64,000 nt of DNA from Candidatus Latescibacterota bacterium (GCA_965116885.1 OZ220741.1:3872001-3936000), one strand, 5' to 3'. Counted from the stretch's first letter, positions 9,332-60,421 are shown. A program made the numbers and translations. Notes: a model not told the origin generated them from the sequence alone.

Positions 9332-9351
9332 AAGCCCCTCACTTCCTCCTA

Positions 9352-10503: not shown

Positions 10504-10525
10504 GGCGTTTTTCTCATAGTGATGC

Positions 10526-13287: not shown

Positions 13288-13995
13288 TTAGATGAGTTCA
13301 ATATCGCGTAAGATCCAGGACAGTAGCGTAAATGTGACAAAGACGGGTCGTCTTTGTGTATCGAATACATAGTGGATGGGTAATGTGCCCTGTCCTGTGT
13401 GGCAAAAAGAGAAGAGGGATTGGCCGTTGGATTCGATTTGTTCGGGCCCGTGAAGTAGCTGACCTGTTTTGCAGTACGTGAGTTCGTCGATGGTTGTAAA
13501 TGTTTCGTCCAGGGGGGTGGTCCGATTGGCGAGCGCGAGGGGGAGGATCCATTGGCACGATATGGGTGTATCCGCCGAGAGGTGCTTTTTACCGGCTGTG
13601 CCATTTATTTCTATGATCGCGTCCCGAACCGTGCCATTGATGAGCAGGCGTTTATCCGGTGTTTCTGCCTGGTACCAGGCGAGTTTCCAGTCCTGAATTG
13701 ATTCTCCAATGCACTCATCCTGCGCTGTTGTGACGGTTGCTTCGTAAATTTCCCGCCCGCCGCCATTGCGTTTTTCAACGATCAGGTACTCTGCACCGTT
13801 CTCTTTGTTGTAGCGCGAGATTTCCACTGTTCCTATTGGCCTGTCATCAGTCAATCCGTCGGGATGTGTGTTTGTCCACTGCAGAATTTCGTAGGTCAAT
13901 TTGCAATCGGAATCCAATTGAACGGTTTGTTCTGGGGCATCGTAGTTTTGCAATTGCCCGGCGATTGTGTTGAGTTCGGCTGGTATGATGTTCAT
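13288..13995 (-). CDS. Hypothetical protein
   Basis: GGAGGT RBS; ATGA overlap with the upstream sulfatase stop; no recognised motif. Confidence 0.75.
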   Translation of the reverse strand: MNIIPAELNTIAGQLQNYDAPEQTVQLDSDCKLTYEILQWTNTHPDGLTDDRPIGTVEISRYNKENGAEYLIVEKRNGGGREIYEATVTTAQDECIGESIQDWKLAWYQAETPDKRLLINGTVRDAIIEINGTAGKKHLSADTPISCQWILPLALANRTTPLDETFTTIDELTYCKTGQLLHGPEQIESNGQSLFSFCHTGQGTLPIHYVFDTQRRPVFVTFTLLSWILRDIELI

Positions 13996-15302
13996 GATCC
14001 CACCTCCTCTGTCCATCCATTTCCACGTTTGAGATTTGCCATTCTCTCTTCTCTTATTCTATCTCTTTCCCCCGTTTTATCGGGTCCGCTGTAGGGTGTG
14101 ACGATGTTTGCGTATTCGGCGAGGTATGTGGCGTGCCTGTGTTTGACGTCGTCAAAGCCGGGTTCTGATGCGAGATTCTGTTTTTCCAGGGGATCGTTTG
14201 ACAAATCGTAGAGGGTGTGTTGTCCCGAGTCGTAGAGGATGGATTTGTACTGGTTGTCGCGAATGGCGATTGCACTTGCGTTTTCTCCTATGACGCTTTC
14301 TCGCCAGGTAATATCGTCTTTTCCTTCGAGAAGTGGGCGCAAGCTATTTGCATACGTGGTGTCGGGCAGGGGAGGTGCGCCGGCGTAATCGCAGATTGTG
14401 GCGGGGATATCCACGCCCGATATGAAGTGCGAATCGTTTTGCCTATTGGGGATGCTGCCGCGTTGTGAAATGACGAGTGGGACTGCCCAGGCTTCTTCTT
14501 CAAAAAAGCCTTTCAATACTCTTCTGTGGTGCCCAGAGCCTTCGCCGTGGTCGGCTGTAAAGATGATGAGGGTGTTTTCAATGAGGCCATTGTTTTCCAA
14601 TGTGTCGTAGATCAATCCGATCTGGGCGTCAACGGTTTCTACCATTCGGTAACACTGATAGATGTAATATCGCCAGTCTGTTTCTGACCAGTGGCCGACC
14701 CGGTGCTTCTGGTTTGGCGGCATGAGACTGATTTCGAAGTTGCCGGGTAAATCGGGTAGGTCGGGCAACTGAGGCTCCATGCCGTATTTTCCCACGGGTC
14801 CGCTGACGCCGCAGACATAACAGCAGTCGTGCGGGTTTAAAAGACCGACTGATAAAAAGAAGGGACGGTCATCATTTGCGTGGTCGGAGATATATTGTGC
14901 TGCTGCTCTGGCAGAGCCGGAGTCTTGCAGTTCTCCGTAGGGATGTCTGTCGTAGATCACGTCAAAGCTGTTGGCAACATTTCGTCCCGTGACATGCCAC
15001 TTGCCAGAATACACACAGTTGTAATCGGTGTGTTTGGTCAACCACTGGCCGAGGTCGGGCAGGTTGGGGTCGATGGGGAACGGATTGCTGATAACGCCGT
15101 GTTCGACAGACATGCGCCCGGTGTACCAACTCGCGCGTGCAGGACAACAGACGGGGTTGGCGCTGTAGGATCGTCTGAAAGATATGCCTTCTGCGATCAG
15201 GCGATCCATGTTGGGCGTTGATACATCTTTATTTCCATAGGCGGATATCGCGAGGTGATGTTGTTGATCCGTGTGGATGAATACAATATTGGGTTGGCTC
15301 AT
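13992..15302 (-). CDS. Sulfatase (Cys-type)
   Basis: PNIVFIHTDQ, CCPAR, GKWH, ADHG. Confidence 0.94.
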   Translation of the reverse strand: MSQPNIVFIHTDQQHHLAISAYGNKDVSTPNMDRLIAEGISFRRSYSANPVCCPARASWYTGRMSVEHGVISNPFPIDPNLPDLGQWLTKHTDYNCVYSGKWHVTGRNVANSFDVIYDRHPYGELQDSGSARAAAQYISDHANDDRPFFLSVGLLNPHDCCYVCGVSGPVGKYGMEPQLPDLPDLPGNFEISLMPPNQKHRVGHWSETDWRYYIYQCYRMVETVDAQIGLIYDTLENNGLIENTLIIFTADHGEGSGHHRRVLKGFFEEEAWAVPLVISQRGSIPNRQNDSHFISGVDIPATICDYAGAPPLPDTTYANSLRPLLEGKDDITWRESVIGENASAIAIRDNQYKSILYDSGQHTLYDLSNDPLEKQNLASEPGFDDVKHRHATYLAEYANIVTPYSGPDKTGERDRIREERMANLKRGNGWTEEVGS

Positions 15303-31515: not shown

Positions 31516-32682
31516 ATGAAGATCACTGAGGTGGAACCCATCCTGCTCACGGTTGATATGCCGGAAGAGCATCCTTTGCGATGGTCGGGGGGAGAAGCTG
31601 CCAGCGTAAATTGCGCGCTGGTGCGGGTGCATACCGATGGAGGCATCACCGGTCTGGGAGATTGCTATGGGTCCGGGTTTGTCGCGGGTGAGGCCACAGC
31701 TGAGTTGTTTCGTCTGTTCGGGCAGTTTCTCCAGGGCAAAGACCCACGAGATGTGGCCGGATGTTACGAGATGATGTACCGCCGCATCCTGTACTGGGGT
31801 CGGTCCGGGCTGGCAGTAGCAGCGGCCAGTGCGGTCGAGAACGCCCTGTGGGATATTGCGGGAAAAGCGGCCAGTGTACCGGTATATCGCCTGCTGGGAG
31901 GGTTGTGCCACGAGAAACTGCCGATTTATGCCAGCGGCGGTCTGGAACAGCCTCTGGAGGATCTGAAAGCAGAGATGAGAGCGCATCGTGAAGCGGGATT
32001 TCGAGCCGTGAAGATGCGGATTGGCGTGAACCGGGAACACGACCTGGAACGGGTAGCCGCATGCCGGGAGGTGCTGGGGTCTGAGGTGAAGCTAATGGCG
32101 GACGCGGTGATGGGACACAATCCGGATCCATGGACAGCGGCGGATGCGGTGCGGGTAGCGAAGGCTTTAGAGCCGTACGATTTATTCTGGCTGGAGGAGC
32201 CTTGTTTTGCGGCGGACTACGAGGGCTATGCCCACGTCCGCCGAAATACCTGTATTCCCATTTCGGGCGGTGAGAGTTCGTGCATGCGGTATGAGTTCAA
32301 ACATTTTTTTGAGCGGCAGGCACTGGACGTGGCCCAGCCGGATGCATGCCAGGCAGGGGGCATCTTAGAGTGTATAAAGATAGCTGCAATGGCCGATGCG
32401 TGTGGTGTAAAAGTGGCACCCCATGCCTGGGGGACTTCGATTACGGTCGCTGCCAACCTGGCCTGGGCATTTGTCACGCCCAATACCGTGCTTGCCGAGT
32501 ATCCAACCTGGCATTTCCCGCTCACAGACGCGCTATTTGTGGAAAAACCGCGGATTGAAGATGGGATGGTTTATCCTCCAACAACGCCTGGACTGGGAGT
32601 GGAACTTCCAAAAGAACTGGAAGAAGAGTACCGGTACCGACCAGAATCATCCAGACTGGATATGCGGAGAGAAAGAGAATGA
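31516..32682 (+). CDS. Mandelate racemase/MLE-family enzyme
   Basis: ALWDIAGK, KMR, WLEEP, GGE, QPD, PH, PGLG. Confidence 0.93.
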   Translation: MKITEVEPILLTVDMPEEHPLRWSGGEAASVNCALVRVHTDGGITGLGDCYGSGFVAGEATAELFRLFGQFLQGKDPRDVAGCYEMMYRRILYWGRSGLAVAAASAVENALWDIAGKAASVPVYRLLGGLCHEKLPIYASGGLEQPLEDLKAEMRAHREAGFRAVKMRIGVNREHDLERVAACREVLGSEVKLMADAVMGHNPDPWTAADAVRVAKALEPYDLFWLEEPCFAADYEGYAHVRRNTCIPISGGESSCMRYEFKHFFERQALDVAQPDACQAGGILECIKIAAMADACGVKVAPHAWGTSITVAANLAWAFVTPNTVLAEYPTWHFPLTDALFVEKPRIEDGMVYPPTTPGLGVELPKELEEEYRYRPESSRLDMRRERE

Positions 32683-34147: not shown

Positions 34148-34181
34148 CGCTCGCGTTTCAGCGTATTGAAAGGAGATGTTG

Positions 34182-35489
34182 ATGGGAAAGCTGGCATTGA
34201 CGGGGGGACCTGAGGCGGTAAGGCTCGACAGAAGGAAATTCGCGGTTCCCCCTGTGAGTGAGGAGGCGATTGCAGCGGTGGTGGGACTGATGCGTAAGGG
34301 CGAGACTTCCATTTCACCATCGGTTGCAGAGTTCGAACGCGAGTTCGCCGATTACGTCGGCTGTGAATACGGGCTGGCACTTACCAGCGGTACGGCGGCA
34401 CTTCAAACGGCCCTGTTTGCGGTGGGGGTGGAGCCAGGCGATGAGGTTATTGTTCCTTCCTTTACATTTCTTACCACAGCGACGACTGTGCCAGCTATGG
34501 GGGGCGTCACTATTTTTGCCGATGTAGATCGCGATACGATGACTCTGGATCCCGCCGACATAGAGCGGAAGATTACAGAGCGGACCCGTGCGATTGTCGT
34601 TTGCCACGTCTGGGGTAATCCTGCGGATATGGAATCGATTTTGAAACTGGCACGCCCGCGGAGGATCGCCGTGATTGAGGACTGTTCGCACGCCCACGGG
34701 GCGACCTGGCAGGGAAAGAAAGTCGGTTCTGTAGGCGATGTCGGATGTTTCAGTTGCCAGGGGTCCAAGCTAATTGCAGCGGGGGAGGGCGGTGTACTCA
34801 CGACAAACGACCGCGACCTGTACGAGCGGGCTATTGTGCTGGGTCGTCCGGAAAAGCGTGCCGAAATTCGAGAGGATTCATGGATAAAACGCTTTGCCTT
34901 CACGGGGTTGGGTTTCAAATACCGTCCCCACCCGCTGGGCATTGCAATCGCCCGCGAGCAACTTCATCACCTGGATGAGATGAACAAAATCCGAGACCGC
35001 AATGGTGCTGTCCTGGACACCGGGCTGGCAGATGTGGCAGATGTGGTGCCTCAGCGAGTGCTTCCGGGTTGCCGGCGCGTTTACAATAGCCACTGTATGC
35101 GGTATGATCCGGATAGGCTCGGAGGTGTTTCAATCGAGACCTTCCTGCGGGCGCTCTCAGCAGAAGGGGTGAGTATCGGCAGAATGAGATACGGACATTT
35201 GCACGGGAATCCGATTTTTACAGAGGGATTTCCCTATGGTACGAGGGGTGTGACGTTGAGCGCACGGGGACATGATGCATCGGATTTTTCAAATGGTCCG
35301 CTTCCGGTGACAGAACATCTCAGAAAGTATGCTTTTCGTGCGGCTCCCCGGCTCGAAACGGAGTGTCGGGAACTGATCAACCAGTATCTGGATGCCTACC
35401 ACAAGGTGGCATCGGCCGTCGATGAACTCCTAACTTACGAGAGGGAGCACAAATCAGAGGCTCAGGAGAGACACGGAGGTGTGTTATGA
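34182..35489 (+). CDS. DegT/DnrJ/EryC1/StrS PLP aminotransferase
   Basis: SGTAAL, EDCSHAHG, S..GSK...GEGG. Confidence 0.93.
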   Translation: MGKLALTGGPEAVRLDRRKFAVPPVSEEAIAAVVGLMRKGETSISPSVAEFEREFADYVGCEYGLALTSGTAALQTALFAVGVEPGDEVIVPSFTFLTTATTVPAMGGVTIFADVDRDTMTLDPADIERKITERTRAIVVCHVWGNPADMESILKLARPRRIAVIEDCSHAHGATWQGKKVGSVGDVGCFSCQGSKLIAAGEGGVLTTNDRDLYERAIVLGRPEKRAEIREDSWIKRFAFTGLGFKYRPHPLGIAIAREQLHHLDEMNKIRDRNGAVLDTGLADVADVVPQRVLPGCRRVYNSHCMRYDPDRLGGVSIETFLRALSAEGVSIGRMRYGHLHGNPIFTEGFPYGTRGVTLSARGHDASDFSNGPLPVTEHLRKYAFRAAPRLETECRELINQYLDAYHKVASAVDELLTYEREHKSEAQERHGGVL

Positions 35490-36766
35490 TACCCAAAGAG
35501 ATAACAAATTCCGTTCCGGCGTTGACAGACGAGACATTTGAGGCGTTGTTCGAAGCCTGTCGTCCTCAAAAGGAACGGTGGACAGATATCCCCTGGATCG
35601 GAGGACTGTGGGAGGGGCGACAGAAGGCGGCGCGCGAGGAGAAGCCACTGTTCATCTGGGCGATGAACGGTCATCCTCTGGGGTGTACGTGAAATAACGG
35701 GGTTACGGGCCGTGCGCTCGTTTTTTCAGATCCGCGTGTGATCGAGTTTTTGAATGAATGGTTTATCCCGGTGGCTGTGAACAATACCCGGTTGCAGCGA
35801 CAAGTCGATGATGAAGGCCGGTTTTTGCGCCTGATCTCCTGGCAGGGAAGGTACGGGTATTCTTTTGAGGAAGCACAGGCCAGGTTGGAGGATATCGATC
35901 ACGGGCTGAACCATCAGGGTTTGTATGCTGTGACGACGGAGGGAGAGGTGTTGGGTAGCCGCAACAGGCTGTTTCCGGGAGGCAAGGACTCGGTCCATGG
36001 TGTGGGTAGCGATCCAGACCGGTTTTTGTGGATGTTGAGACGGGCGCTGGAGAACTGGGATAACCGCAAGACCCAGCGCGAGACATTGGAAATCGAAGAT
36101 CTGGCGTATCGAGATCCTACATTTAGCTGGACGGGGTATCCTGAAGATGGATTGGTTTTACACCTGAGCGTTCGGGATCTGCCCCGGGAGGTGGATACGC
36201 GACCTGCGGGAATGAAGCGAGAGGCGCACAATCAGGATTACGTCTGGTTCCGACGGGAAGAAGTGCTGTCTATGGTTCCACTGGATGCGGCTGTAGGCAA
36301 TGTCGTTCCCATGTCCGATGGGCTGGTCAGACGGCTGGTGCGTTATCATCTGGCGGATTATGTTCGAGGGGAAACGTCTTCCTGGCCGTCCGAGGCGATC
36401 CGGGATGCGGCTATAAAGTTGACGGTGATGGAGGATACGCCGGAATGGGTTGATTTAAGGCTTTCCGGATCCGCACAGCTGTTCTCGGAGGGGAGTTGGT
36501 ACGAGGGCGTGTGTCGGGAACGGGGGCTGGATGCATCGCTGTTGGGTTATCTCCGTTTTGATCGGCGGACGGAACAGTTCGTGAGATTCGATGTTGTGGC
36601 GGTGGGATCGCGGTGGGGCGGCACGGACTACAACGTACGACAGGACGATTTGGAGCCTGCACCTATCGGGGTTGCGATGACGATTGCCGGGCGGGAAGCG
36701 AGGGATCGTACTGCGCCGCATGCGTGCCAGAGGCGGGGTGGCCTGGGGTGGTATTTTAATGCGTGA
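35486..36766 (+). CDS. Putative selenoprotein (426 aa) with thioredoxin/SelN-like N-terminal domain; Sec at TGA 35690-35692
   Basis: Track ORFs 35486-35692 and 35738-36766 are in the same frame, separated only by TGA: KPLFIWAMNGHPLGCT-U-NNGVTGRALVFSDPRVIEFLNEWFIPVAV. GGAGGT RBS at the first start; SECIS-like hairpin at the UGA. Confidence 0.8.
35690..35728 (+). promoter_or_regulatory. Bacterial SECIS-like stem-loop
   Basis: Manual fold: UGAAA/UUUCA, AACGGG/CUCGUU, upper stem UACG/CGUG, G-containing apical loop about 15 nt after the UGA. Confidence 0.7.
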
Positions 36767-36808
36767 TTTGATAGTTGGGATGTGTTTTGTCGCATTTTGG
36801 GAGAACCG

Positions 36809-37735
36809 ATGATACGGTGTGAACGGAGAGCGGAACTCGAGATAGAAACACCGCATCTTTGTGCAACTGTGCGGACTGAGGGATACGTGAGCGGGATCAA
36901 AAGCAGGTCGTTTGTAGATAAACGGACGGGCGCGACCGATCTGGGTTCGGGTCTGCACATTATGGACTTCTTGCTCGTACCGGGGTGGGGAGATGCAGAA
37001 CCAAATCGGATCTACGACGGGAATCTACCCAAGCGCGTCGTGGAAGGTCCCCAGATCTGTACGCGGGCACGGCAGTTGGACTATGAGGTCATCCAGAGCG
37101 AAACGTTTCTGGCTGTGCGGCAGTGGTTTACGTTTACGGATGTGGTTGAAGGTTTTCAGGCCGGGTCGCGGTGGGAACAGACACTGCTATTTCTACCGGA
37201 CACGCGGTACGTACTTTCGTGCGAACGGATTTATTGTGTCAACAGCGCGGATTGTCTGTTCTACCGGATCGACATGCCCGGCCACTTGCACCACAAGGGC
37301 GGAGACTCCTTTACACGGATTTACTTGAGCTATCACGGGTATATTGAATCTTCAGAGTTCCTGGCGGATTTCCCTCCTGACGAGGGTTTTCTCTACCAGC
37401 GAAAAGAGGGCGATATTCCCGATCGGATTATCCGGGCATACGAACAACGACAAGAGGATGGCACATCCGTGTGGCTGGCTGGGATGACGCTGGATCCGGC
37501 GGATGTGTACGAGGCATGGTGTCATCAACGGGGTTATGTCTGCTTCATCCAGGAACTGCACGGTCGAAAGGTGGCGGCTGGGGACACGATTGGAGCCGCA
37601 TACGTGGTGGGGTATTTCGATTCGGTGGATGAGATGAATGCGGTTTACGACCAGTATCGGGGGGTGCGCTCAATTGCGATAGATGAGAAGGGATATACAC
37701 TGCTGGACGAAGTTGAGAAAGCCGATGAAACTTAG
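36809..37735 (+). CDS. Conserved hypothetical protein
   Basis: Long ORF with GGGAG RBS; aromatic, beta-rich sequence (EAWCHQRGYVCFIQE); function not recognised. Confidence 0.8.
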   Translation: MIRCERRAELEIETPHLCATVRTEGYVSGIKSRSFVDKRTGATDLGSGLHIMDFLLVPGWGDAEPNRIYDGNLPKRVVEGPQICTRARQLDYEVIQSETFLAVRQWFTFTDVVEGFQAGSRWEQTLLFLPDTRYVLSCERIYCVNSADCLFYRIDMPGHLHHKGGDSFTRIYLSYHGYIESSEFLADFPPDEGFLYQRKEGDIPDRIIRAYEQRQEDGTSVWLAGMTLDPADVYEAWCHQRGYVCFIQELHGRKVAAGDTIGAAYVVGYFDSVDEMNAVYDQYRGVRSIAIDEKGYTLLDEVEKADET

Positions 37736-38182: not shown

Positions 38183-39751
38183 ATGACCAGAGACTCACAT
38201 AAATCGCCTGTGTCTATTGATCGAAGGGATTTTATTCACCTGGCCGGTCTTGGCGCAATGGGCGCGCTTGTTCTGGGGCTGGATGTTCCTGTTGGCGCAC
38301 AAAAACAACCCAATTTTATCTTTATGGTTTCTGACGATCAGGGGTGGGATGGCCTTTCGGTGCAGATGCACGATGCGATTTTCGGTTCAAAGAGCGATTT
38401 TTACCAGACGCCCAATCTCGAGAAGCTCGCACAGCAGGGCATGCGTTTTTCGGCAGCTTATTCGCCTTCGCCTGTCTGTTCACCCACGCGATGTAGCCTT
38501 CAAACGGGTAAAAGTCCGGCACAGAACCACTGGACAAAGGCGTCCCCTATTCTGACCGCCAGAGATGGCCGTAAACTCATCCCACCAATGCATGGCAGAG
38601 ATCTCTCCAGTGGTGAGATAACCATTGCTGAGATGTTGAAACAGGCCGGTTATACCACAGCACATTATGGCAAATGGCATCTCGGTGGCGGTGGACCAGG
38701 ACGTCACGGGTATGACGTACACGATGGGAATACGGGTAACAGGGATGCGGCTCGTCATGTCGATCCCAATCCTGTAGATATATTCGGTATGTCCCGGCGT
38801 GCCAATGCGTTTATGGAGGAGAATACAGAAGCGGGCAAGCCGTTCTTTATCCAGTTGTCTTACTATGCTCTGCACTATCCCCGGAATGCGCTGGAGAGTA
38901 CGCGGCAGGCATACGAAAATCGACCGAGGGGGCGCGTCCATCGAAATGTCAATCGCGCGGCGATTACTGAAGACCTGGATACGGGGGTGGGTATGATCAT
39001 GGACCAAGTTGAGAAACTCGGTATTGGCGGTCACACGTATCTGATTTACATGTCGGATAATGGGGCTGTTGGAGGCGGTCTGGGTGTGTTGCGCGGGTCG
39101 AAGGGATCACTGTGGGAGGGAGGTATTCGCGTGCCGTTGATTATCCAGGGACCTGGTATAGAGCCAAATACGTTTTGTGATGAACGCGTGGTCGGTGTTG
39201 ATCTGTTTCCCACGCTTTGCGAACTGGGCGGTGTAAGTCAGCCGTTGCCATCGGGTATTGAGGGAGGGAGTATCGCGTCGTTATTATCTGGTGGGTCGGG
39301 TGCGGTTGTGAGACCTCGGGAGGAGCTTGTGTTTCATTTTCCGCATTATCAAAGTGAAGATGATGGACCGCATTCGGCAATTATATTGGGCGATTACAAG
39401 TTGCTCAAGTTTTACGAGACCGATGAGGTGCGGTTGTATGATTTAGCCAATGATATTGGTGAGCAGAATGATTTGTCCAAAGATATGGGAGAAGAGGCGA
39501 TGCGTCTGCGCGAACGTCTCGAACAGTATCTCGATTCCGTTGACGCTCAGATGCCAGTGCCCAATCCCAATTATGGGCCAAGCAAATCAAGTGATTTTAA
39601 TGGCGATGGACAAATCAATTTCCAAGATTTTCTGGAATTTGCCAGAGCTTATGGGTCGGAGGAGACTCGGTTTGATCTGGATAATAGCGGGCGTGTGGAT
39701 TTTGCCGATTTTTTGAGGTTTGTACAAGATTTTGGAAGCGCCGGGAATTAA
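38183..39751 (+). CDS. Tat-exported arylsulfatase with C-terminal dockerin-like/EF-hand pair
   Basis: DRRDFI Tat motif, CSPTR, GKWHLG; tail DFNGDGQINFQDFL...DLDNSGRVDFADFL. Confidence 0.92.
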   Translation: MTRDSHKSPVSIDRRDFIHLAGLGAMGALVLGLDVPVGAQKQPNFIFMVSDDQGWDGLSVQMHDAIFGSKSDFYQTPNLEKLAQQGMRFSAAYSPSPVCSPTRCSLQTGKSPAQNHWTKASPILTARDGRKLIPPMHGRDLSSGEITIAEMLKQAGYTTAHYGKWHLGGGGPGRHGYDVHDGNTGNRDAARHVDPNPVDIFGMSRRANAFMEENTEAGKPFFIQLSYYALHYPRNALESTRQAYENRPRGRVHRNVNRAAITEDLDTGVGMIMDQVEKLGIGGHTYLIYMSDNGAVGGGLGVLRGSKGSLWEGGIRVPLIIQGPGIEPNTFCDERVVGVDLFPTLCELGGVSQPLPSGIEGGSIASLLSGGSGAVVRPREELVFHFPHYQSEDDGPHSAIILGDYKLLKFYETDEVRLYDLANDIGEQNDLSKDMGEEAMRLRERLEQYLDSVDAQMPVPNPNYGPSKSSDFNGDGQINFQDFLEFARAYGSEETRFDLDNSGRVDFADFLRFVQDFGSAGN

Positions 39752-49240: not shown

Positions 49241-50698
49241 CTTACAGCCCGTAAGACCCACTCGCAGAGAGCTTTAGCGTTGGGAAGCAGACGCGAGTTA
49301 GCGAGCGTTATTTTGCAAGGGCTTCCGAATTTATGGTGCGGTGCTTTAGCATGGTGGCACATTGCTCAAGGCAATGTGGGCGGTGGAGCGGTGTACAAGT
49401 GCGCCAGCACTTCATCAACCAAAATCATCCGTTCACTGACTACATAAAAATTGCATAAATTACTGTTTTTATGTATATTTATACTATGGAATACTTAACA
49501 TACAAATACAAAATGTATAGTCTCTGTGACCGCAATAAGTATCTGCACTATGAGATAGACGCTTTTGCTGAGGTGTATAATCATTTCATTGCCTTGCACA
49601 AGCGATACTATCGGCGTTTTGGCAAATATCCGAGTAAGTTCACAATGATTAACCATTTGGCAAAGCTGAAAAGAACAACACGCTTTGCACATTGGCGTTT
49701 GTTGCCGAGCCAGGCATTGCAAAATGTGGTTGAGCGTATAGACCTTGGCTATCAGAAATTCTTTGCCAGAGACAACAAGCGTCCGCCCACATTCAGGTCT
49801 CGCTTTCGGTATCAGTCCTATACGCTGAAGCAAGCAGGATACAAATTCCTCGAGCGTAACAAGGTGCGTATTGGCAAGCGTATATTCAGATACCATAAGA
49901 GCAGAAAGTTCGATGTAGAGCGTATCAAGACGGTCACAATCAAACGTGACCGTGTAGGCGATTTGTGGCTATGTGTTGTTGCAAAGGCTGAGGGTATCAA
50001 GTCATTCATGATCAAGAACGGTAAAACCGCAGGTTTTGATTTTGGCTTGCAAACATATCTAACAGCCTCAGACAGCACAAGGACACAATCGCCATTGTTC
50101 TTTAATCGTAATTCAAGGAAAGTCAAAAAGGCTAATCGCAATCTTTCTCGTAAAAAGAAAGGTAGCAACAATCGTCACAGGGCAAGCGTAAATCATGCCA
50201 GAGTGCATAGGCGCGTTGCTAATCAGCGCAGAGACTATCACTGGCGACTTGCCCATCAACTGTGTAAAGACTATGACGTTATGTTCTTTGAGACTTTGAA
50301 CATTGACGCCATGAAAGCGTTGTGGGGCAGAAAGATTAGCGATTTGGGCTTTTCAAACTTCTTGTCCATCCTCAAGTATGTGGCAAAAAAGACTGGCAAA
50401 GTTGTCAAACAAATCGACAAATGGCTACCCACGTCAAAGACCTGCTCTGCTTGTGGCACAGTCAAAGAGGACCTCGAATTGCGAGAAAGAACATTCCATT
50501 GTTGCGAATGTGGTCTTGAGATAGACAGAGACCTCAACGCGGCGATAAACATTCACAGGTGGGGGCGTCCACCTATGGCGGAGGTAGCGTAAGACTTGCC
50601 GAACTTCGGGGAAGCAAGCAACTACTGTTGATCCCACAATCCCTGCTGAAGCAACAAGGTTTTAGAATCCCAATGCTTTAGATTTGAGAGTACGTCAA
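49241..50698 (+). mobile_element. Non-autonomous IS200/IS605-family (tnpB-only) element
   Basis: Left end follows TTAT and contains CTTAC/GTAAG and CCCA..GCTTTAGCGTTGGG hairpins; right end AGAATCCCAATGCTTTAG...GAGTACGTCAA; no intact tnpA. Confidence 0.85.
49486..50592 (+). CDS. tnpB: RNA-guided endonuclease TnpB
   Basis: RuvC-I GFDFGL, RuvC-II FETLNI, Zn finger CSAC...CCEC, RuvC-III DRDLNAAINI; promoter TTGCAT-N17-TATATT. Confidence 0.93.
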   Translation: MEYLTYKYKMYSLCDRNKYLHYEIDAFAEVYNHFIALHKRYYRRFGKYPSKFTMINHLAKLKRTTRFAHWRLLPSQALQNVVERIDLGYQKFFARDNKRPPTFRSRFRYQSYTLKQAGYKFLERNKVRIGKRIFRYHKSRKFDVERIKTVTIKRDRVGDLWLCVVAKAEGIKSFMIKNGKTAGFDFGLQTYLTASDSTRTQSPLFFNRNSRKVKKANRNLSRKKKGSNNRHRASVNHARVHRRVANQRRDYHWRLAHQLCKDYDVMFFETLNIDAMKALWGRKISDLGFSNFLSILKYVAKKTGKVVKQIDKWLPTSKTCSACGTVKEDLELRERTFHCCECGLEIDRDLNAAINIHRWGRPPMAEVA

Positions 50699-53707: not shown

Positions 53708-54874
53708 TTATTTCACTGCGTACTGCATTAATTTTTTTTCATCGATTTCAATGCCCAGTCCCGGACGGTTGGGCAGTTCGAGATAGCTGCCATTTCGGGT
53801 GAGGGAGTGTTTCAGGATCTGGTCGCTTTTTAGCTGGAAGCTCTGGTCGAAGTGTTCCATGATGACAAAGTTGAGAATGCCTGCCGAGAGCTGGAGTTGC
53901 GCGGCGGTGGAGAGGACGTTGCCTGCGCCAACTGCTGGGGCGAGTGGGATGTCGAAGGTTTCGGCGAGGTGGGCGATGCGCTGGCTACCCGTGATGCCTG
54001 TTCGCGCGAGGTCGGGCAGAAGAATGTCGGCGGCATGTGCTTCCAGAACAGCGCGGAATTGATAGGCGTTGTAATATTCCTGGCCGATGCAGATGGGTAG
54101 GGTGAGGTCGCGCGGTACTTCGGCATGGCGGCGGAGGTCTTCGCTGGGCACGGGCGATTCGAGCCAGAAGACGTCGAATTTTTCGAGTTCTTTACCCAGG
54201 GCAATTGCACCGGGTACGTCGTAATGCCAGGTGAGATCGACGAGGATATCGACGCTGGGACCAACGGCTTCGCGTGTGGCCTCTACGACGGCAACGGCAT
54301 TTTTTAAGGGCCGATTGAGGTGATATTTGACCGCGTCGTAACCCATTTCAACGGCTTTGAGGGCTTGCTCAACGCCGATTTCGGGCGTGGGACCCTGAAT
54401 GTTGTTGTAGATGCGCACTTTGTCGCGGTAGGGGCCACCGAGGAGGACGTAGCAGGGTACGTCGAGGTATTTGCCCGATAGATCCCAGAGGGCATTGTTG
54501 ATGCCCGCAAGGGCTGCCGCGAGATAACCCGAGCGGTAACCGCGACCGCGCATGGTGCCGTAGGTCATGTCGTAGAGTTTTTCGCGAGCGAGCGGATTTT
54601 CGCCGATGAGAATGGGGGCAAACAGGCGATCTACGACTGCTTTGGTGGCTTCGGGAACGAGCAGGGATTGGCCTTCGCCCCATCCGACAAGGCCATTGTC
54701 GGCGGTGATTTTGACAAAGAGGGCTTCGGCATAGCGCGCGGCTGCCATGTCGTCGATGGGAGGCGTTGTGTCATAGGAGAGAGATTTGCGAGGGCGCACA
54801 TAATCGGGAATATTTTCAGCGATATTGGGACGGGGTAATTTGACGACATAGGCGTCGATTTGTTCTATTCGCAT
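53708..54874 (-). CDS. Mandelate racemase/MLE-family enzyme
   Basis: GWGEG, ALWDLSGK, WLESP, GQE, LPD, PGLGIE. Confidence 0.92.
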   Translation of the reverse strand: MRIEQIDAYVVKLPRPNIAENIPDYVRPRKSLSYDTTPPIDDMAAARYAEALFVKITADNGLVGWGEGQSLLVPEATKAVVDRLFAPILIGENPLAREKLYDMTYGTMRGRGYRSGYLAAALAGINNALWDLSGKYLDVPCYVLLGGPYRDKVRIYNNIQGPTPEIGVEQALKAVEMGYDAVKYHLNRPLKNAVAVVEATREAVGPSVDILVDLTWHYDVPGAIALGKELEKFDVFWLESPVPSEDLRRHAEVPRDLTLPICIGQEYYNAYQFRAVLEAHAADILLPDLARTGITGSQRIAHLAETFDIPLAPAVGAGNVLSTAAQLQLSAGILNFVIMEHFDQSFQLKSDQILKHSLTRNGSYLELPNRPGLGIEIDEKKLMQYAVK

Positions 54875-54901
54875 TTGTGATTCCTTTCTACCATTTGTCA
54901 A

Positions 54902-56332
54902 TTATGCAACGCCCCAGCCAGGATACTTATCCGGATCCGCAAACTCCTGTCCCAATTCCAAAAAGCCACGGGGGCCACGCCTGCCGTATTCAAATGGATC
55001 TTTTGTACCTTCCATCCAACGGTGCAATCTTTCTTCCATTTCTTGAAGTGCTGGCCGCGCTTCAGCAGAATTCGCCAGGTTAACCATTTCGAGCGGATCT
55101 TCCTGCCGGTCAAACAGATAGGGACCTCGCTCATTGGCAAACCAACGCGCATACGTATAGCGTTCGGTACGCACACCTCGCCAGCGCCCAACCCAACCGT
55201 CGCGATTGGGCCAACCGTGTGCCATATTCTGCAAATAGACAGACTCCGATCCACCAGGCGTTAACTCCGTATCTGCAGGTGCTTCACCACCACGCCACAC
55301 GCTCGAAATATCTCGCCCTTGCAGACCGTCTGGCAACGGCACGCCACAAGCACCCAGCAATGTAGGTACAATATCAATCGCACCAAAGAAAGCATCCGTT
55401 CGCGTACCAGCTTCAGTAGCATCGGGCCAACGCACCACAAACGGCACATGGCAAGATTCTTCATAAGGTGTTGCTTTTGAAGCCCGCATCGACTCGTCCA
55501 ACCAGCGACTACTGGGTTTGCCATATCCATGGCTTGAAAGGTGATCTCCATGATCTGATGTATAACAGACAATTGTATTGTCTTTGATCCCCAGGCGATC
55601 CAGGGCTTCCAACAATCGCCCCATCTCTGCATCAAGTCCTGTACAACACCCGTAATAGTCTGCAAGTTCCTCATGTGCCCATGCTTTCATCTCGTCTGGT
55701 ACATTGCCCGGCACATCCATGTCCGCAGGATTATAAATATTATATTCGTCGGGATACTGCTTATATGGCCAGTGAGGAGGTCGCCAGGACACAAAGACGG
55801 CAAATGGATCGTCTGTTCGAGCATTCAGGTGTTTTTCAATAAATTGAATAGCCAAATCCGTTTCGTTCGTGGGCGTCCAGCCTCTGTAAAAGTTCGGGCC
55901 CTCATCATTTTCGTAATAGGTTCTGTCGTAGTAGGCGCCCCGCCCTCTCCCGCCTGCAAGCGCTGCAAGATAATCCAGCCCGTACCGATTGTCGTCGCCA
56001 TACGGCCCTTTACCCAGGTGCCATGTACCCACGTGCGCAGTGCCATACCCATGCTCGCGCAAAGTGCCTGGCAGGGTTGGGATATCTCGTCGCGGACTGT
56101 ACTCATTATCAATTACCAAATTTTGCCAACCATACCGACCGGTTAGCAAAATTGCTCGATAAGGCGAACACAGCGGGTGGTTGGAAAACATATTGTCACA
56201 CACCATTCCTTCGGCTGCCATCGCATCCAAAACAGGCGTTTGGATTATGTCATTGCCATTCGCTCCCAGCGCGCTATAACGCTGCTGGTCAGAAAACACG
56301 AACAGAATATTTGGGCGTTTCTCATTACTCAT
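54902..56332 (-). CDS. Sulfatase (Cys-type)
   Basis: PNILFVFSDQ, CSPYR, PPH, TSDHG. Start at ATG 56332. Confidence 0.93.
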   Translation of the reverse strand: MSNEKRPNILFVFSDQQRYSALGANGNDIIQTPVLDAMAAEGMVCDNMFSNHPLCSPYRAILLTGRYGWQNLVIDNEYSPRRDIPTLPGTLREHGYGTAHVGTWHLGKGPYGDDNRYGLDYLAALAGGRGRGAYYDRTYYENDEGPNFYRGWTPTNETDLAIQFIEKHLNARTDDPFAVFVSWRPPHWPYKQYPDEYNIYNPADMDVPGNVPDEMKAWAHEELADYYGCCTGLDAEMGRLLEALDRLGIKDNTIVCYTSDHGDHLSSHGYGKPSSRWLDESMRASKATPYEESCHVPFVVRWPDATEAGTRTDAFFGAIDIVPTLLGACGVPLPDGLQGRDISSVWRGGEAPADTELTPGGSESVYLQNMAHGWPNRDGWVGRWRGVRTERYTYARWFANERGPYLFDRQEDPLEMVNLANSAEARPALQEMEERLHRWMEGTKDPFEYGRRGPRGFLELGQEFADPDKYPGWGVA

Positions 56333-56352
56333 GGGGATTCCTTTCATAATGG

Positions 56353-59187
56353 TTACAGGAGGGTTTTGAGCAGGTTGCTCAGTAAACGATCCGCTACCGG
56401 GTCTGTGCCCAGGTTTTCGACAATGCGATGTGTGCATAGAATGTATTTGCCATTGCCGTAAGCGATTTGTGTGAGGTCAGCGCCGTGGAAGGCTTCGGTG
56501 ACGCCGATGTAGTTTTGTTTGTGTTTGAGGCCCGCATACCAGTCGTAGGTGATGTTGCCACATATCCAATCGGTTTTTGGTTCTAAAATGGACCACTGGG
56601 AGGAGATGTTTTGATATTCCTGTCCCATCAGGCAATTTGAGGGCAAGCCATCGTAGAAGGGGTGGTCTTTGACGACATGACTACAGGGCGTCCATAATCC
56701 TTTGCCGGAGTACAGAGATAGTGAGAATGGGAAGAAAATGTCTTTTTCAATGTAGCGAGACATACGGCTTTTTCCTGGTGCCATTTTGAGAAGGTGCATG
56801 GCTGGCAGGTTGAGGAAGAGTGCTGTGCCGCCGTTTTCAACCCATGTAGCGAGATCGGCGAAGCGGGTATCGGATTTGCCGTTCCAGCCCTGGAGGTTGA
56901 TGAGTGCGAGTTGGTCTGTGGGGGAGTGAGTGGAGAAGGCGGTTGTGTTGGAAAGGTATCTACCGAGTGCGCCGTTGAGGTCGATTGTCGCTATGGGTAC
57001 ATCTGGAATGGCGGATTTGTTTTTGTCCAGGACGTAGATGCTGGACTGGTTTTTGATGGGGTCTGCATCAGATGTGAATGTCAATTCGATCTGGCATAGC
57101 CCTTCAATACCACGGGTGTTAACTTCATAAGTCGCCAGGTCTGTGATGTCGGTGGGTATTGTTATTTGTTCGTTTATGTCGAGAAGATTTTGTCCATCGT
57201 TTGTGGTGACGCGGAGGGAGAGTGTGCCCGATAGATCGTTTTTGTCATTGACGGTGGTGAGCAGGATTTGGACGGATTCGCCTGCATAGACATTTTGTTT
57301 GTCGGGGCGAATGGCGACATAACGGTCGGCGAATACTTCTTTGATGGCGTAATAGGGCTTTTTGGGATTTCGGAAGTTGTCGATTAAGCCAGCCCCGATG
57401 ACCCAGTCGCCGTCGTTGAGCGCGTGGATGCCGATACCCGCGATGTCGGGATTGATGCGGCAGGCTTCGGTCATGAGTTTGTTGCCAGTGGCGTGGATTT
57501 CCTGGCAGGCCTGTACAAAGGCGTGGAAGCTGGGAAAGATCTGGTCTGTTCCGGTTTCGTGGAACACAGAGAGATAAGAATTGAGGAGGCGTTCGTGCAT
57601 GCGGTAATCCGGTGTGATGGGATTGCCTTCTGTTTTGTATTGTTCAAAATTTGCTTCGAGATCGGGGATACTGCCATACCCGAGTTCTGAGATATTGGTA
57701 AGCAAGTCGGGTTTGATTTTGCTGTTGGTGAACTGGGCGATTTCCAATCCCATTTCTTTTAGTTGCGCCTCGGTTTTGCCGAGTGCGAGCAAATTGTCGT
57801 AACTGCTTTGGGCAAAGGGTGTGCCGGGATAGTTGTGTACATCGTTGATGACAATGGGTTCGTAGGATCCGGGAAGGTAAATACTGCATCCATCAGCAAA
57901 TCCGCCTGCTTCGTCGATGATCATGCGGGTGTGGTCGCATTCACGCGCTTTTAAGGATACGCTGTGTTTGAGGCGTTTGAGACCGTTGCGCATGATTTCA
58001 TTAAACATTTCCCAGATGACGATGGAGGGGTGGTTGCGGTCTCGTTTGACCATTTCCGTGGCTTCATTTTCGATGCGTTGTTGGGTATATGGGGTGATCT
58101 GGGGCCAGTTGTCCATGCATTCGACGGGGAGTGCGCCCACAAATAGGACACCCATTTCGTCTGCGAGATCATAGACGATTGGCGGTTGGGGTTTGCGCCA
58201 CGGGCGGATCATGTTGATGTTGCCGTCTTTGATGAGTTCGAATTCTTTTTTTAGAAGATTGAGGTCGCGCGGGTATGCGAGGGCGTGTGGATAGAAGGCT
58301 TCGTTGAAGGTGGTTTTGAGGATGATTTTTTCGCCGTTTAAGTAGAAGTTTTTGCCTCTGGCTGTAAATTCTCGGAAGCCGAAGCGCGTTTTTTCAATAT
58401 CTGAGGTTTCGTTCCCAAGGGCGACTGTGGTGGTGGCGACATAGAGATTGGGTTCGTCGAGTTGCCAGAGTTTGTGGTTTGCGATGGCGAGTATTTCTTC
58501 GCGGTGACTTGTGCCGGGGTTCAGGTCGAGTGTTTCTTGCCCAGAGGCGACCTGTGTCTCGCTTTTGTATTCTGTGATCGACCAGGTGATGGTCGCGGAT
58601 TGTATTTTCAAATCCCGATTTTGAAATGTGCTGGCGATGTTGACTTCGCCCGTGTGGATGTCGGATATAACGAATGTGTCCTCAACGTACACAGGACCCG
58701 TAGCGATGAGGGAAACCGATTGCCATATACCACCGGCGATTGCACCGCGCCAATGGGGCATGTCATCGCGGCCTATGCCATCGATGACCACGTCTTGGAG
58801 AATGAGGGGCGTGATGACGCGAACGGCGATGAAGTTTTCGCCTTCGGTTAAGAGGTCGTCGATCAAGAGTTCAAAGCCGATGTATCCGCCTTCGTGCGCG
58901 CCAGCGGCTTCGCCATTGACCCAGATTTCTGCGCGGTAGTTGACGGCTCCAAAATGCAGGCGGATGATTTTGTTTTCCCAGTCGGAGGGAAGGGTAAACG
59001 TTTTGCCGTACCAGGCGACGCCTTCGTAATCTTGTTTGAATTCTTCGAGACATGCGGGGACGGTTATTTGCTCTAAGTCTGCGCAGGCATAGAAATTTTC
59101 GCGATGCTGTAAGTTGAGCGTGCGGCCCTTGTTGTCGTGATCGTAAATAACTTGCCAGGTTCCGTCGAGTGAGTGGGTTTGTTTCAT
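56353..59187 (-). CDS. Glycoside hydrolase family 2 protein
   Basis: GVAWY, LHFGAVNY, GFREF, RDRNHPSIVIWEMFNE, SELG. Alternative GTG start at 59220. Confidence 0.9.
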   Translation of the reverse strand: MKQTHSLDGTWQVIYDHDNKGRTLNLQHRENFYACADLEQITVPACLEEFKQDYEGVAWYGKTFTLPSDWENKIIRLHFGAVNYRAEIWVNGEAAGAHEGGYIGFELLIDDLLTEGENFIAVRVITPLILQDVVIDGIGRDDMPHWRGAIAGGIWQSVSLIATGPVYVEDTFVISDIHTGEVNIASTFQNRDLKIQSATITWSITEYKSETQVASGQETLDLNPGTSHREEILAIANHKLWQLDEPNLYVATTTVALGNETSDIEKTRFGFREFTARGKNFYLNGEKIILKTTFNEAFYPHALAYPRDLNLLKKEFELIKDGNINMIRPWRKPQPPIVYDLADEMGVLFVGALPVECMDNWPQITPYTQQRIENEATEMVKRDRNHPSIVIWEMFNEIMRNGLKRLKHSVSLKARECDHTRMIIDEAGGFADGCSIYLPGSYEPIVINDVHNYPGTPFAQSSYDNLLALGKTEAQLKEMGLEIAQFTNSKIKPDLLTNISELGYGSIPDLEANFEQYKTEGNPITPDYRMHERLLNSYLSVFHETGTDQIFPSFHAFVQACQEIHATGNKLMTEACRINPDIAGIGIHALNDGDWVIGAGLIDNFRNPKKPYYAIKEVFADRYVAIRPDKQNVYAGESVQILLTTVNDKNDLSGTLSLRVTTNDGQNLLDINEQITIPTDITDLATYEVNTRGIEGLCQIELTFTSDADPIKNQSSIYVLDKNKSAIPDVPIATIDLNGALGRYLSNTTAFSTHSPTDQLALINLQGWNGKSDTRFADLATWVENGGTALFLNLPAMHLLKMAPGKSRMSRYIEKDIFFPFSLSLYSGKGLWTPCSHVVKDHPFYDGLPSNCLMGQEYQNISSQWSILEPKTDWICGNITYDWYAGLKHKQNYIGVTEAFHGADLTQIAYGNGKYILCTHRIVENLGTDPVADRLLSNLLKTLL

Positions 59188-59216
59188 ATGTTGAAAAGTT
59201 CCTTTTCCATAAGAGT

Positions 59217-60224
59217 TCACGAACTACGCGGCCGAAACCGGTTTATTGCATCGTCTGCCCGCGCGTGATTTGCATCAATCGTGCGCCCGGCATTGTGCGG
59301 TGTGTGAACCACATTGTGGCGGCCAAGCAGTGGAGAATCCAAACGCACCGGTTCAATGTCCCAGACGTCTGCGGCCAGGGCGAGTTCGTCATTGAGGACC
59401 CGTTGATACAATGTTTCGGTGTCGCAGATCGCTGCGCGTGTCACCAGAACGACGAGCGATTGATGCGGCAATGTGCGAATGGCCTCCGGGCCAACCAGCC
59501 CACGCGTATCGTCCTTCAGGGGGACTATCGGCGCAAAGATATCGGCGTCTTTCACGAGTTCTGAGAGATCGAAGCATCGCCTGACACCGGCGAGCGTAAA
59601 CGATGCCTCCGGTGCAAATGGATCCCAGACGGCTACATCTGCTCCCATGTTCGAACACCATGAAGCGTACCGTCCTCCAATATTACCAATGCCAACGACG
59701 CGTACTCGCTTCCCCGCAATGGTGCCGCTCACAAAGCGTGGGTCGTCGCCAAATTGGACACCCCTTTGTCCGGGTTTGCCAACGTCTGGTTTGTATTGCC
59801 AGGTCTCGTGGCTCTCCATCATTTCCACGTAGGTCTGCGGTATCCGTCGCAATGCACTTATTGTGAGCCCGAGTGCAAACTCGGCAACCGTTTGTCCCCA
59901 TTGAATGGTACCACGAGGGCGAATTATGTTCACCCCACGGGCGTGTGCGGCATCGAGGCCAGCGTTTGATTGGCCTGCTGCATCGTGGTAGAGTTCCTCA
60001 AGACCGGAAAATGGCTCGAGATCCTCAGTGTCAGCCGGAAGGCCAAGGAGGACGAGCCGATGTACCGATGAAGGATTCTCCACCATCTGTGGTGCTCGAG
60101 CCTCAGATGCCTCGGTGCGATAGAGTTCGCAGTCTCCTGATTCCTGCCAGCGGCGTTTCCAGTGGTCGGCCACAAAGGGCCAACTGGCGTCAAAGCGTTC
60201 GTGAACACAGATTACTGATCTCAT
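59217..60224 (-). CDS. D-2-hydroxyacid dehydrogenase-like NAD-binding protein
   Basis: GIGNIG, TRA, DVWDIEP, TPHNAG. Confidence 0.88.
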   Translation of the reverse strand: MRSVICVHERFDASWPFVADHWKRRWQESGDCELYRTEASEARAPQMVENPSSVHRLVLLGLPADTEDLEPFSGLEELYHDAAGQSNAGLDAAHARGVNIIRPRGTIQWGQTVAEFALGLTISALRRIPQTYVEMMESHETWQYKPDVGKPGQRGVQFGDDPRFVSGTIAGKRVRVVGIGNIGGRYASWCSNMGADVAVWDPFAPEASFTLAGVRRCFDLSELVKDADIFAPIVPLKDDTRGLVGPEAIRTLPHQSLVVLVTRAAICDTETLYQRVLNDELALAADVWDIEPVRLDSPLLGRHNVVHTPHNAGRTIDANHARADDAINRFRPRSS

Positions 60225-60306: not shown

Positions 60307-60421
60307 GCAGAGACATTGCCGATTATTTGTTCTGAGCATTCTCCTTGACACGCCCTCTCGAAGATCGTAGATAAGACCGATAGATCGAATGTCGGCAAAA
60401 GCCCATACGACAGGAGGAATT

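Follow-up and report, generated by a model that had tools for sequence, protein, structure and literature searches.

A candidate selenoprotein gene hidden by annotation in a Candidatus Latescibacterota bacterium, most likely one of a large thioredoxin-fold family

The split reading frame

The window analysed here is a stretch of 64,000 nucleotides from Candidatus Latescibacterota bacterium (GCA_965116885.1, OZ220741.1:3872001-3936000), and our subject within it is a candidate selenoprotein gene whose reading frame is interrupted once. On the + strand, a single frame of 426 codons runs from 35486 to 36766, with a lone in-frame TGA at codon 69 (35690-35692), in the context G-H-P-L-G-C-T-[TGA]-N-N-G; downstream of this codon the frame is open for 357 codons, up to the TGA at 36764-36766. 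Listing the open reading frames (ORFs) with table 11 gives two of them, 35486..35692 (68 aa) and 35738..36766 (342 aa, GTG start). The ATG at 35486 shares bases with the TGA stop (35487-35489) of the aminotransferase gene upstream, in an ATGA overlap, and inspection of the sequence revealed no GGAGG-like stretch ahead of the GTG at 35738. An earlier reading of this DNA, made from the sequence alone (the sequence-only reading), had proposed that the two ORFs are one frame split by a single TGA, that the ATG is coupled to the upstream aminotransferase, and that the second fragment has no obvious ribosome binding site; all three points hold, and the read-through product has 426 residues. The features of the window are collected in Table 1.

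TGA is an ordinary stop codon in the window. It ends 20 of the 47 large ORFs, including the upstream neighbour and the candidate gene itself, so neither code 4 nor code 25 is in use in this organism. Among the 25 same-frame TGA junctions of the window, a Cys-adjacent, redox-like context is present at 35690 alone. Very probably, the two called ORFs are one gene, which would encode a 426-residue, selenium-containing, thioredoxin-like redox protein; we base this on comparison of sequences. The core proposal of the sequence-only reading, a CxU selenoprotein of ~426 aa with a large C-terminal domain, split by gene callers, is thereby supported, by the TGA, the Cys forms, the truncated database entries, the fold and the hairpin.

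Alternatively, TGA-69 could be a real stop, so that a 68-aa peptide and a ~340-aa protein are encoded by adjacent genes, or that a pseudogene is present. This is how the table-11 listing presents the locus, with its two ORFs. The lack of a Shine-Dalgarno-like stretch before GTG 35738 argues against it, and further evidence on the matter comes from the related loci, the database relatives and the predicted fold.

Table 1. Positions in the window of the candidate selenoprotein gene, its parts and other genes
Feature	Position	Strand	Basis
Sulfatase	7943-9355	-	
Enolase-superfamily sugar-acid dehydratase	9355-10545	-	
Sulfatase	13995-15302	-	
Enolase-superfamily sugar-acid dehydratase	31516-32679	+	
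DegT/DnrJ/EryC1-type pyridoxal phosphate (PLP) aminotransferase gene	34176..35489	+	PF01041, E 2.3e-83
Shine-Dalgarno-like GGAGG, 6 nt 5' of the ATG (putative function)	35475..35479	+	read from sequence
Full candidate selenoprotein gene, 426 codons and TGA terminator, selenocysteine (Sec) at codon 69	35486..36766	+	
Thioredoxin-like N-terminal domain, ~residues 17-195	35534..36070	+	AlphaFold2, Foldseek, weak PF03190/PF13899/NF041383
Predicted redox motif Cys67-Thr68-Sec69 (TGT ACG TGA), Sec-UGA at 35690-35692	35684..35692	+	
SECIS-type stem-loop, ACGGGC/GCUCGU (35705-35710 with 35716-35721), loop CGUGC (35711-35715)	35705..35721	+	
C-terminal beta-rich domain, residues 200-426, function unassigned	36083..36763	+	domain model
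True terminator TGA	36764..36766	+	sequence; orthologous terminators vary
Sulfatase	38183-39748	+	
Enolase-superfamily sugar-acid dehydratase	53711-54901	-	
Sulfatase	54905-56437	-	
GH2-type glycosidase	56356-59220	-	
Sulfatase	60389-61804	+	
Enolase-superfamily sugar-acid dehydratase	63253-63876	-	

Conservation of the TGA codon and of a stem-loop behind it

Related loci were collected from one genome per species by a scan with six peptide patterns, which yielded 27 loci. One of the patterns (FIWAMNGH) is N-terminal and favours loci keeping the N-terminus, with no bias on codon 69. The loci come mostly from Latescibacterota; three are from Gemmatimonadota (L019, L022 and L024), and single ones belong to Verrucomicrobiales (L025), Kiritimatiellia (L026) and Isosphaeraceae (L027). 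They span four to five phyla, with protein identities going from 92% down to 28-30%.

TGA is present at the homologous codon in all 26 loci that retain the region (26/27 overall), and TAA or TAG was never found there. The codons around it wobble (GGG/GGA/GGT/GGC, TGT/TGC, ACG/ACC/GTT/GTC/GTG and AAT/AAC) whereas TGA is constant. At their true ends, these 26 genes carry TGA in 20 cases, TAA in four and TAG in two; were codon 69 a genuine stop, similar variation should be seen there. The in-frame TGA is conserved far beyond chance, and the keeping of both the frame and the exact codon in 26/26 loci speaks against a real stop. In an alignment of 19 sequences (A2), the strongest conservation of the whole protein flanks the TGA, and residues K53, P54, W58, A59, M60, N61, G62, P64, C67, N70, N71, G72 and R76 are invariant. 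The motif itself is C-T-U or C-V-U across all 26 loci (U designates Sec).

A hairpin of 17 nt, with a 6-bp stem and a 5-nt loop CGUG[C/A] whose G's are invariant, is conserved downstream of the codon and begins 12 nt past the UGA. It was studied in an RNA alignment comprising 25 of 27 sequences (L002 and L007, omitted, are identical here to L001 and the window, respectively, and L015 is without the site). The six pairs are formed in all 25 sequences with none broken, and likewise in the 21 distinct rows, and in five of the six both partners have changed, as in the stem variants ACGGGC/GCUCGU, GUGGGC/GCUCAC, AUCGAC/GUCGAU, CUGGAC/GUCCAG and GUGCGC/GCGCAC. The covariation score, which includes a weak lower stem, was 0.377, as compared to 0.200 +/- 0.020 for shuffled alignments (reached by 0/500) and at most 0.127 for slid partners; RNAalifold independently gave the same six pairs. 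Several of these compensations bring paired changes in the protein, T-G, V-G, I-D, L-D and V-R on one side going with A-L-V, A-L-T, A/E-S-I, A-S-S and E-R-T on the other. Had the RNA not been under selection, such coordinated amino-acid changes would be difficult to account for. Synonymous variation points in the same direction: it is zero over codons 72-78 in 12 close relatives, versus a gene mean of 0.194, and codons 72-83 are the fourth lowest of 369 windows.

In E. coli, the selenocysteine insertion sequence (SECIS) of fdhF has an upper stem-loop of ~17 nt, located ~11 nt past the UGA and recognised by SelB. The hairpin described here is a 17-nt stem-loop 12 nt past the UGA, with loop CGUG[C/A], and no bulged U was identified in it. 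A small apical loop with a guanosine, just 3' of the UGA, is given as the hallmark of bacterial SECIS elements in the accessible part of an earlier study (PMC1088965).

Conceivably, UGA-69 is decoded as an amino acid other than Sec, either by an alternative code (Trp or Gly) or by near-cognate read-through (Trp, Cys or Arg). Leaky decoding has no need of a covarying stem-loop at SECIS distance, and the use of TGA as an end to 20/47 large ORFs of the window also stands against it.

A longer hairpin of 39 nt, with the UGA at its base, had been proposed in the sequence-only reading. This pairing (35690-35728) is indeed the minimum-energy fold of the interval from the UGA to +45 in the window, at -13.6 kcal/mol, but it is not conserved, and the 17-nt hairpin takes its place. 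As a conserved element it was rejected: 75.6% of cells are paired among the 21 distinct sequences, a level that 496/500 column shuffles reach, a compensatory change is seen in one of the 15 pairs, and the fold is mutually exclusive with the stem at 35705-35721. A lower stem of 4 bp (columns 13-16/38-41) was rejected too, being unpaired in 5, 7, 5 and 1 of the 21 rows, with no compensation.

Some further observations were made on these loci. A second stretch of low synonymous variation is found at 35996-36043 (codons 171-186), where the value in the 12 close relatives, 0.0185 versus the mean of 0.194, is below that of the SECIS region. In L015 (6001-6684 and ~90 nt upstream), an in-frame deletion joins the first ~16 residues to ~residue 199; it removes ~residues 17-198, that is the thioredoxin/Sec domain, and leaves the C-terminal domain, among window-like neighbours. 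Either decay of this copy or an artefact of the assembly could account for it. Two paralogues, ~60% identical, are present per genome in the case of L011/L012 (OZ244960.1, ~23 kb apart) and L009/L014 (OZ253501.1, ~18 kb apart), and L020/L021 are paralogues in one metagenome-assembled genome. Both paralogues of each such pair carry the in-frame TGA and the hairpin.

Database relatives, predicted fold and neighbouring genes

A word-seeded search gave 219 relatives; among the best 120 of the 219, two have at least 90% query coverage, and the remaining ones are ~340 aa long, with ~80% coverage. A profile search among 1.84 billion cluster representatives (best 150 matches listed) returned 3331 matches at E<=1e-3; 1928 of them reach E<=1e-10, and 524 reach E<=1e-30. 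The Sec column was then counted in a sample of 268 database relatives aligned to the family profile. A majority of them, 245/268, begin past the Sec column, 208 of these at profile positions 70-99, which is the pattern that a gene caller gives when restarting after a stop. These relatives recorded as the downstream piece alone would also suit a real stop at codon 69. Against such a stop, the start positions of the downstream calls are scattered, from profile 70 to 110, and in 23 relatives one polypeptide runs through the site.

In the 23 relatives that cover the Sec column, Cys occupies it nine times (seven C-x-C, one S-x-C and one Q-x-C). A comparison of homologs for TGA or Cys at this column, with conservation on both sides, had been suggested in the sequence-only reading, and its outcome is TGA in 26/26 loci, Cys in 9/23 full-length relatives and conserved flanks on either side. 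The other residues are W (2), A (2), S (3), G (2), D (2), R (1), N (1) and E (1). Twelve of the 23 have neither Sec, Cys nor W; most of these are without the flanking N-N-G, often without Cys67 as well, and they include kinase-fused copies. These forms look like redox-inactive paralogues.

Trp is found in P0050 and P0048, within the exact Sec-type flanks C-V-W-N-N-G. Automatic metagenome gene calls can apply table 4, and the Trp of these two entries is probably a TGA translated in this way. Decoding of UGA-69 as another amino acid than Sec finds some backing in these two relatives, in the G of P0144 (C-T-G), and in the fact that Sec machinery was not seen within the 64-kb window. Its drawbacks, besides the stem-loop and the ordinary use of TGA, are that Sec has Cys as its counterpart in 9/23 full-length relatives, rather than Trp, and that the W forms keep exact Sec-type flanks and come from automatic metagenome calls; we hold it to be very improbable. 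Trp, Arg or Gly at this position had been named beforehand as residues that would tell against Sec. They do occur in the sample (W in 2, R in 1 and G in 2 of the 23), but we do not take them to refute the selenoprotein, because the forms other than Cys and W look redox-inactive, the W forms look like table-4 translations, and TGA is an ordinary stop.

The module is also found in fusions. In P0125, P0132, P0149 and P0172, it is placed C-terminal to a Ser/Thr protein kinase domain, and the columns of Cys67 and Sec69 read TxD, CxA, CxC and CxS in these four proteins. Other fusions, among P0200, P0133 and P0247, involve a C-terminal EF-hand (P0200), a PQQ-type beta-propeller and a SecDF P1-head domain.

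AlphaFold2, run on the alignment of 19 sequences, gave a model with a predicted local distance difference test (pLDDT) of 82.9 and a predicted TM-score (pTM) of 0.84. According to this model, the N-terminal domain has a thioredoxin fold (beta-alpha-beta-alpha-beta-beta-alpha), with core elements at residues 55-60 (strand), 83-92 (helix), 94-99 (strand), 109-121 (helix), 145-149 and 155-158 (strands) and 177-192 (helix). Cys67 and Sec69 sit in the loop joining the first strand to the first helix. A real stop at codon 69 would cut the thioredoxin fold precisely between these two elements, and, together with the constancy of the codon and the relatives that span the site, this leaves next to no chance for that explanation. 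Foldseek against the PDB found 3f9u_A, a DsbD-like C-terminal thioredoxin domain (E 8.5e-3, prob 1.00), and 3ph9_B, which is AGR3 (prob 0.90); model and matches agree with the thioredoxin-like fold that had been guessed from the sequence.

Sequence models detect this domain faintly. No Pfam family was found for the window protein at E<=1, and one NCBIfam family came up below threshold: NF041383 (E 0.0081, residues 35-102, 15.8 bits for a cut-off of 275, covering ~64/287 profile positions). Among relatives, matches to PF03190 (DsbH/DUF255) were seen in 5/21 (best 2.3e-3) and to PF13899 (Thioredoxin_7) in 3/21 (best 0.02), all far below cut-offs, and weak matches to NF041383 in 5/21 (best E 1.7e-4). 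A sequence-profile search of the PDB gave a single match, to AccD1 (E 0.18), which was discarded as due to chance. The C-terminal domain, modelled alone from an alignment of 45 sequences, reached pLDDT 90.9 and pTM 0.87; Foldseek found no match to it in the PDB (0 at E<=0.001; best prob 0.44, TM <=0.31), nor did it match Pfam. There is no hydrophobic N-terminus in the sequence of the window protein. One is present in the orthologues L025-L027, of the Planctomycetes-Verrucomicrobia-Chlamydiae (PVC) group, and in several Cys forms, and with members of both sorts the family seems to act on both sides of the membrane.

It could also be that the module is a ligand or signal sensor, in which a metal, an electrophile or a partner held by the beta domain is bound by the Cys/Sec pair or reacts with it a single time. 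The position C-terminal to a Ser/Thr kinase in the four fusions is the usual one for an extracytoplasmic sensor, 12/23 full-length relatives are without Sec, Cys or W at the column, several of them without Cys67, which implies that the scaffold works without redox chemistry, and the structures that weakly resemble the beta domain are ligand-binding barrels (such as a haemophore and the CERT START domain; prob <=0.25). These resemblances are however not significant, the window protein has neither a kinase partner nor a signal peptide, and in Sec forms conservation is highest in the C-x-U block. Moreover, Sec is costly, and typically kept where catalytic efficiency matters. We therefore find a sensor unlikely, and a redox protein remains the preferred reading.

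The window is rich in genes for the breakdown of sulfated sugars and in oxidoreductases, with five sulfatases, four enolase-superfamily dehydratases and a glycosidase (Table 1), which suggests a region for the use of sulfated polysaccharides. The sulfatase at 38183-39748 terminates in an EF-hand. A catabolic operon around the gene had been proposed in the sequence-only reading; the coupling to the aminotransferase is real in the window, but the adjacency is local. The aminotransferase lies directly upstream in the window and in 2/27 loci only (L001 and L015), it is ~5 kb off in five close relatives, and an amidohydrolase is upstream in three others. L012-L027 have no neighbours in common with the window, with few partial exceptions: three of them have a DegT-like gene downstream (37% identity), L014 shares non-flanking neighbours, and L022 has a 31% enolase-type match. 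Neighbour sharing being so shallow, no function was deduced from it.

The ORF that follows the candidate gene, 16 nt past its stop (36782-37732, + strand, 317 aa), matches no Pfam or NCBIfam model; five loci have it right behind the gene as well (L002, L004, L006, L009 and L011, 91-95% identity), and it is absent from that place in L001 and in the more distant loci. At 49471-50589 (+ strand) an ORF matches the RNA-guided endonuclease TnpB of the IS200/IS605 type (NF040570, E 3e-67). In L025 (1648-5453) and L026 (7988-11378), the gene is near a planctomycete-type pair made of a DUF1552 (HXXSHH) gene and a PSCyt/PSD multi-domain gene, which could be a conserved neighbourhood of the PVC clade.

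Relation to known selenoproteins and possible function

Several results weigh against a selenoprotein and have to be set beside those that favour it. The conserved hairpin is short, with 6 bp and -7.0 kcal/mol in its context, and the 81-nt region folds no better than shuffled sequences (z = -0.08, 82/200 shuffles being as stable); this unremarkable statistic for the single sequence counts for a real stop as well. Rfam gave no match in the window at gathering scores, and matches at chance level (E ~5) for 35640-35790. The one-residue spacer of C-x-U departs from the canonical CxxC/CxxU, and residues 70-75 of the active-site loop have a pLDDT below 50, so that the Cys67-Sec69 geometry is of low confidence. 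Neither selA, selB, selC and selD nor tRNA genes were found within the 64-kb window. Lastly, Sec and Cys are both missing at the column in 14 of the 23 relatives that reach across it, and the Trp of P0050 and P0048 may be a true TGG.

Known selenoproteins offer several points of comparison. A 2026 review gives, in its accessible part, 119 prokaryotic selenoprotein families with domain identifiers and motifs (PMC13188914). Those listed there with a C-x-U motif are rhodanese form 3, UshA-like, ferredoxin-thioredoxin reductase and a PF13192 thioredoxin-like family (PMC13188914). None of the models of these C-x-U families matches here, including PF13192, which was detected neither in the window protein at E<=1 nor in 21 relatives at E<=0.1. 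Judged by the domain identifiers and motifs listed in the part of the inventory available, no family of the 119 appears to correspond, the families listed by cd or PANTHER identifiers alone lying outside the direct comparison of models.

The thioredoxin-fold bacterial selenoproteins of the inventory (thioredoxin, Prx-like, DsbA-like and Trx-like; Table 1 of PMC13188914, as far as accessible) are alike in having a UGA and Cys homologues, a redox-type motif at the start of the first helix (its place in the model here), and a small stem-loop with G in the loop after the UGA. They differ by a UxxC/CxxU motif, as compared to C-x-U here, and by the extra 227-residue beta domain of the present protein, and no Pfam or NCBIfam model of a listed family was reached at cut-off. 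Unlike in the thioredoxin-fold families compared, Sec forms far outnumber Cys forms in our sample. NF041383 (VPGUxxT type 2, 'hypothetical protein OS_HP5'), the sole curated model with a signal, describes a thioredoxin-like selenoprotein, and the match spans the Sec site. Its motif is however V-P-G-U-x-x-T, versus G-C-T-U-N-N-G here, and with 15.8 bits where 275 are required its kinship to the N-terminal domain is at most distant. In structure, this domain comes closest to those of the Thioredoxin_7/DsbH (DUF255)/DsbD C-terminal type and of the AGR/ERp18 type, with a TM on target of 0.55 for 3f9u_A and 0.57 for 3ph9_B, at 14-16% identity (Foldseek). These have CxxC, whereas C-x-U and an unrelated C-terminal fusion are found here, and they are below Pfam gathering scores.

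Eukaryotic selenoprotein N (SelN, SELENON) has its Sec in a thioredoxin-like domain, with Cys beside it or near, in the accessible text of two papers (PMC7474598, PMC12839072), and in this it resembles the present protein. The family might be a bacterial counterpart of SelN, which would refine the selenoprotein interpretation, the Sec domain and maybe the second domain being homologous; we put this forward tentatively, as a possibility that is open to doubt. A feature search of the ESM Atlas with the Cys-form relative P0206 had a 'Selenoprotein N' cluster as its top match, scoring 0.91 with 196/256 features, in a search which gives neither alignment nor E-value and in which shuffled proteins score 0.9 in 4-10/100 cases. 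The cluster has 55 members, 98% of them Eukaryota and mostly Chordata; P0206's own bacterial clusters scored 0.90, with 195-197 features. SelN has its Sec within the thioredoxin domain and has an EF-hand, in what is accessible of PMC7474598, and the relative P0200 has an EF-hand at its C-terminus. With the Sec-form relative P0003, however, which starts past the Sec, bacterial family clusters alone were in the top three. The SelN motif is S-C-U-G, with Sec near residue 458-462, in the part of PMC12839072 available, as opposed to C-x-U at 69 here, and the order of domains differs. SelN is besides anchored in the membrane by its N-terminus and carries an EF-hand (PMC12839072, PMC7474598, in their accessible parts), and the window protein has none of these, neither the S-C-U-G motif, nor the anchor, nor a Pfam EF-hand. 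SelN was not returned by the PDB profile and fold searches made with the window protein. The accessible part of the review does not count it among the families shared by prokaryotes and eukaryotes, which are SelD, GPX, deiodinase-like, SELENOW-like and MsrA (PMC13188914).

In the literature searched, we found no report of bacterial SelN-like proteins or of selenoproteins in Latescibacterota, and in the text of BSepDB none of four phylum names occurs, nor does 'CxU' or 'new selenoprotein'. Were the homology to hold, this would be the first recognised bacterial counterpart of SelN, dominated by Sec, spread over at least four phyla and joined to a beta domain of unseen fold that is reused as a kinase sensor; to this fuller picture we likewise give rather less than even chances.

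For the selenoprotein itself, a mechanism can be proposed. SelB carrying Sec-tRNA(Sec) would bind the 17-nt stem-loop 12 nt past UGA-69, and Sec would be inserted at this codon in place of termination, as the anatomy of the gene suggests. Full sets of Sec-insertion genes have been reported, in the accessible part of PMC4807772, for Isosphaera pallida, of the Isosphaeraceae lineage. In the protein model, Sec69 is placed two residues past the invariant Cys67, at the site that CxxC occupies in thiol-disulfide oxidoreductases. Sec69 would then be the nucleophile, acting on a disulfide, a peroxide or another electrophile, and Cys67 would resolve the intermediate, giving an intramolecular selenenylsulfide that a thiol system of the cell would then reduce again. 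Binding of a substrate or partner may fall to the C-terminal beta domain.

The candidate is most likely a selenoprotein gene hidden by annotation, belonging to a large and apparently undescribed family of the thioredoxin-fold and bacterial SECIS kind. It is distinguished by an unusual C-x-U motif, and by a C-terminal domain without solved relative. As far as sequences tell, the family would be very large and as yet unnamed, extending over Latescibacterota, Gemmatimonadota, Verrucomicrobiota/Kiritimatiellia and Planctomycetota, and its Sec form seems to be common and systematically annotated as a hypothetical protein of ~340 aa. Thousands of database entries appear to be cut at the Sec codon, which one profile and a SECIS rule would correct. 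The finding would add a family with an uncommon C-x-U motif, missing from the NCBI selenoprotein models and apparently from the 2026 inventory, and it would extend the use of selenium to Latescibacterota. It also brings to light a C-terminal domain that is confidently predicted, has no solved relative and is reused in kinase fusions. If the SelN lead proved true, it would point to a bacterial origin of SelN, the human muscle-disease protein SELENON, and bacteria would provide a soluble, tractable model for this human selenoprotein, the substrate chemistry of which is unclear.

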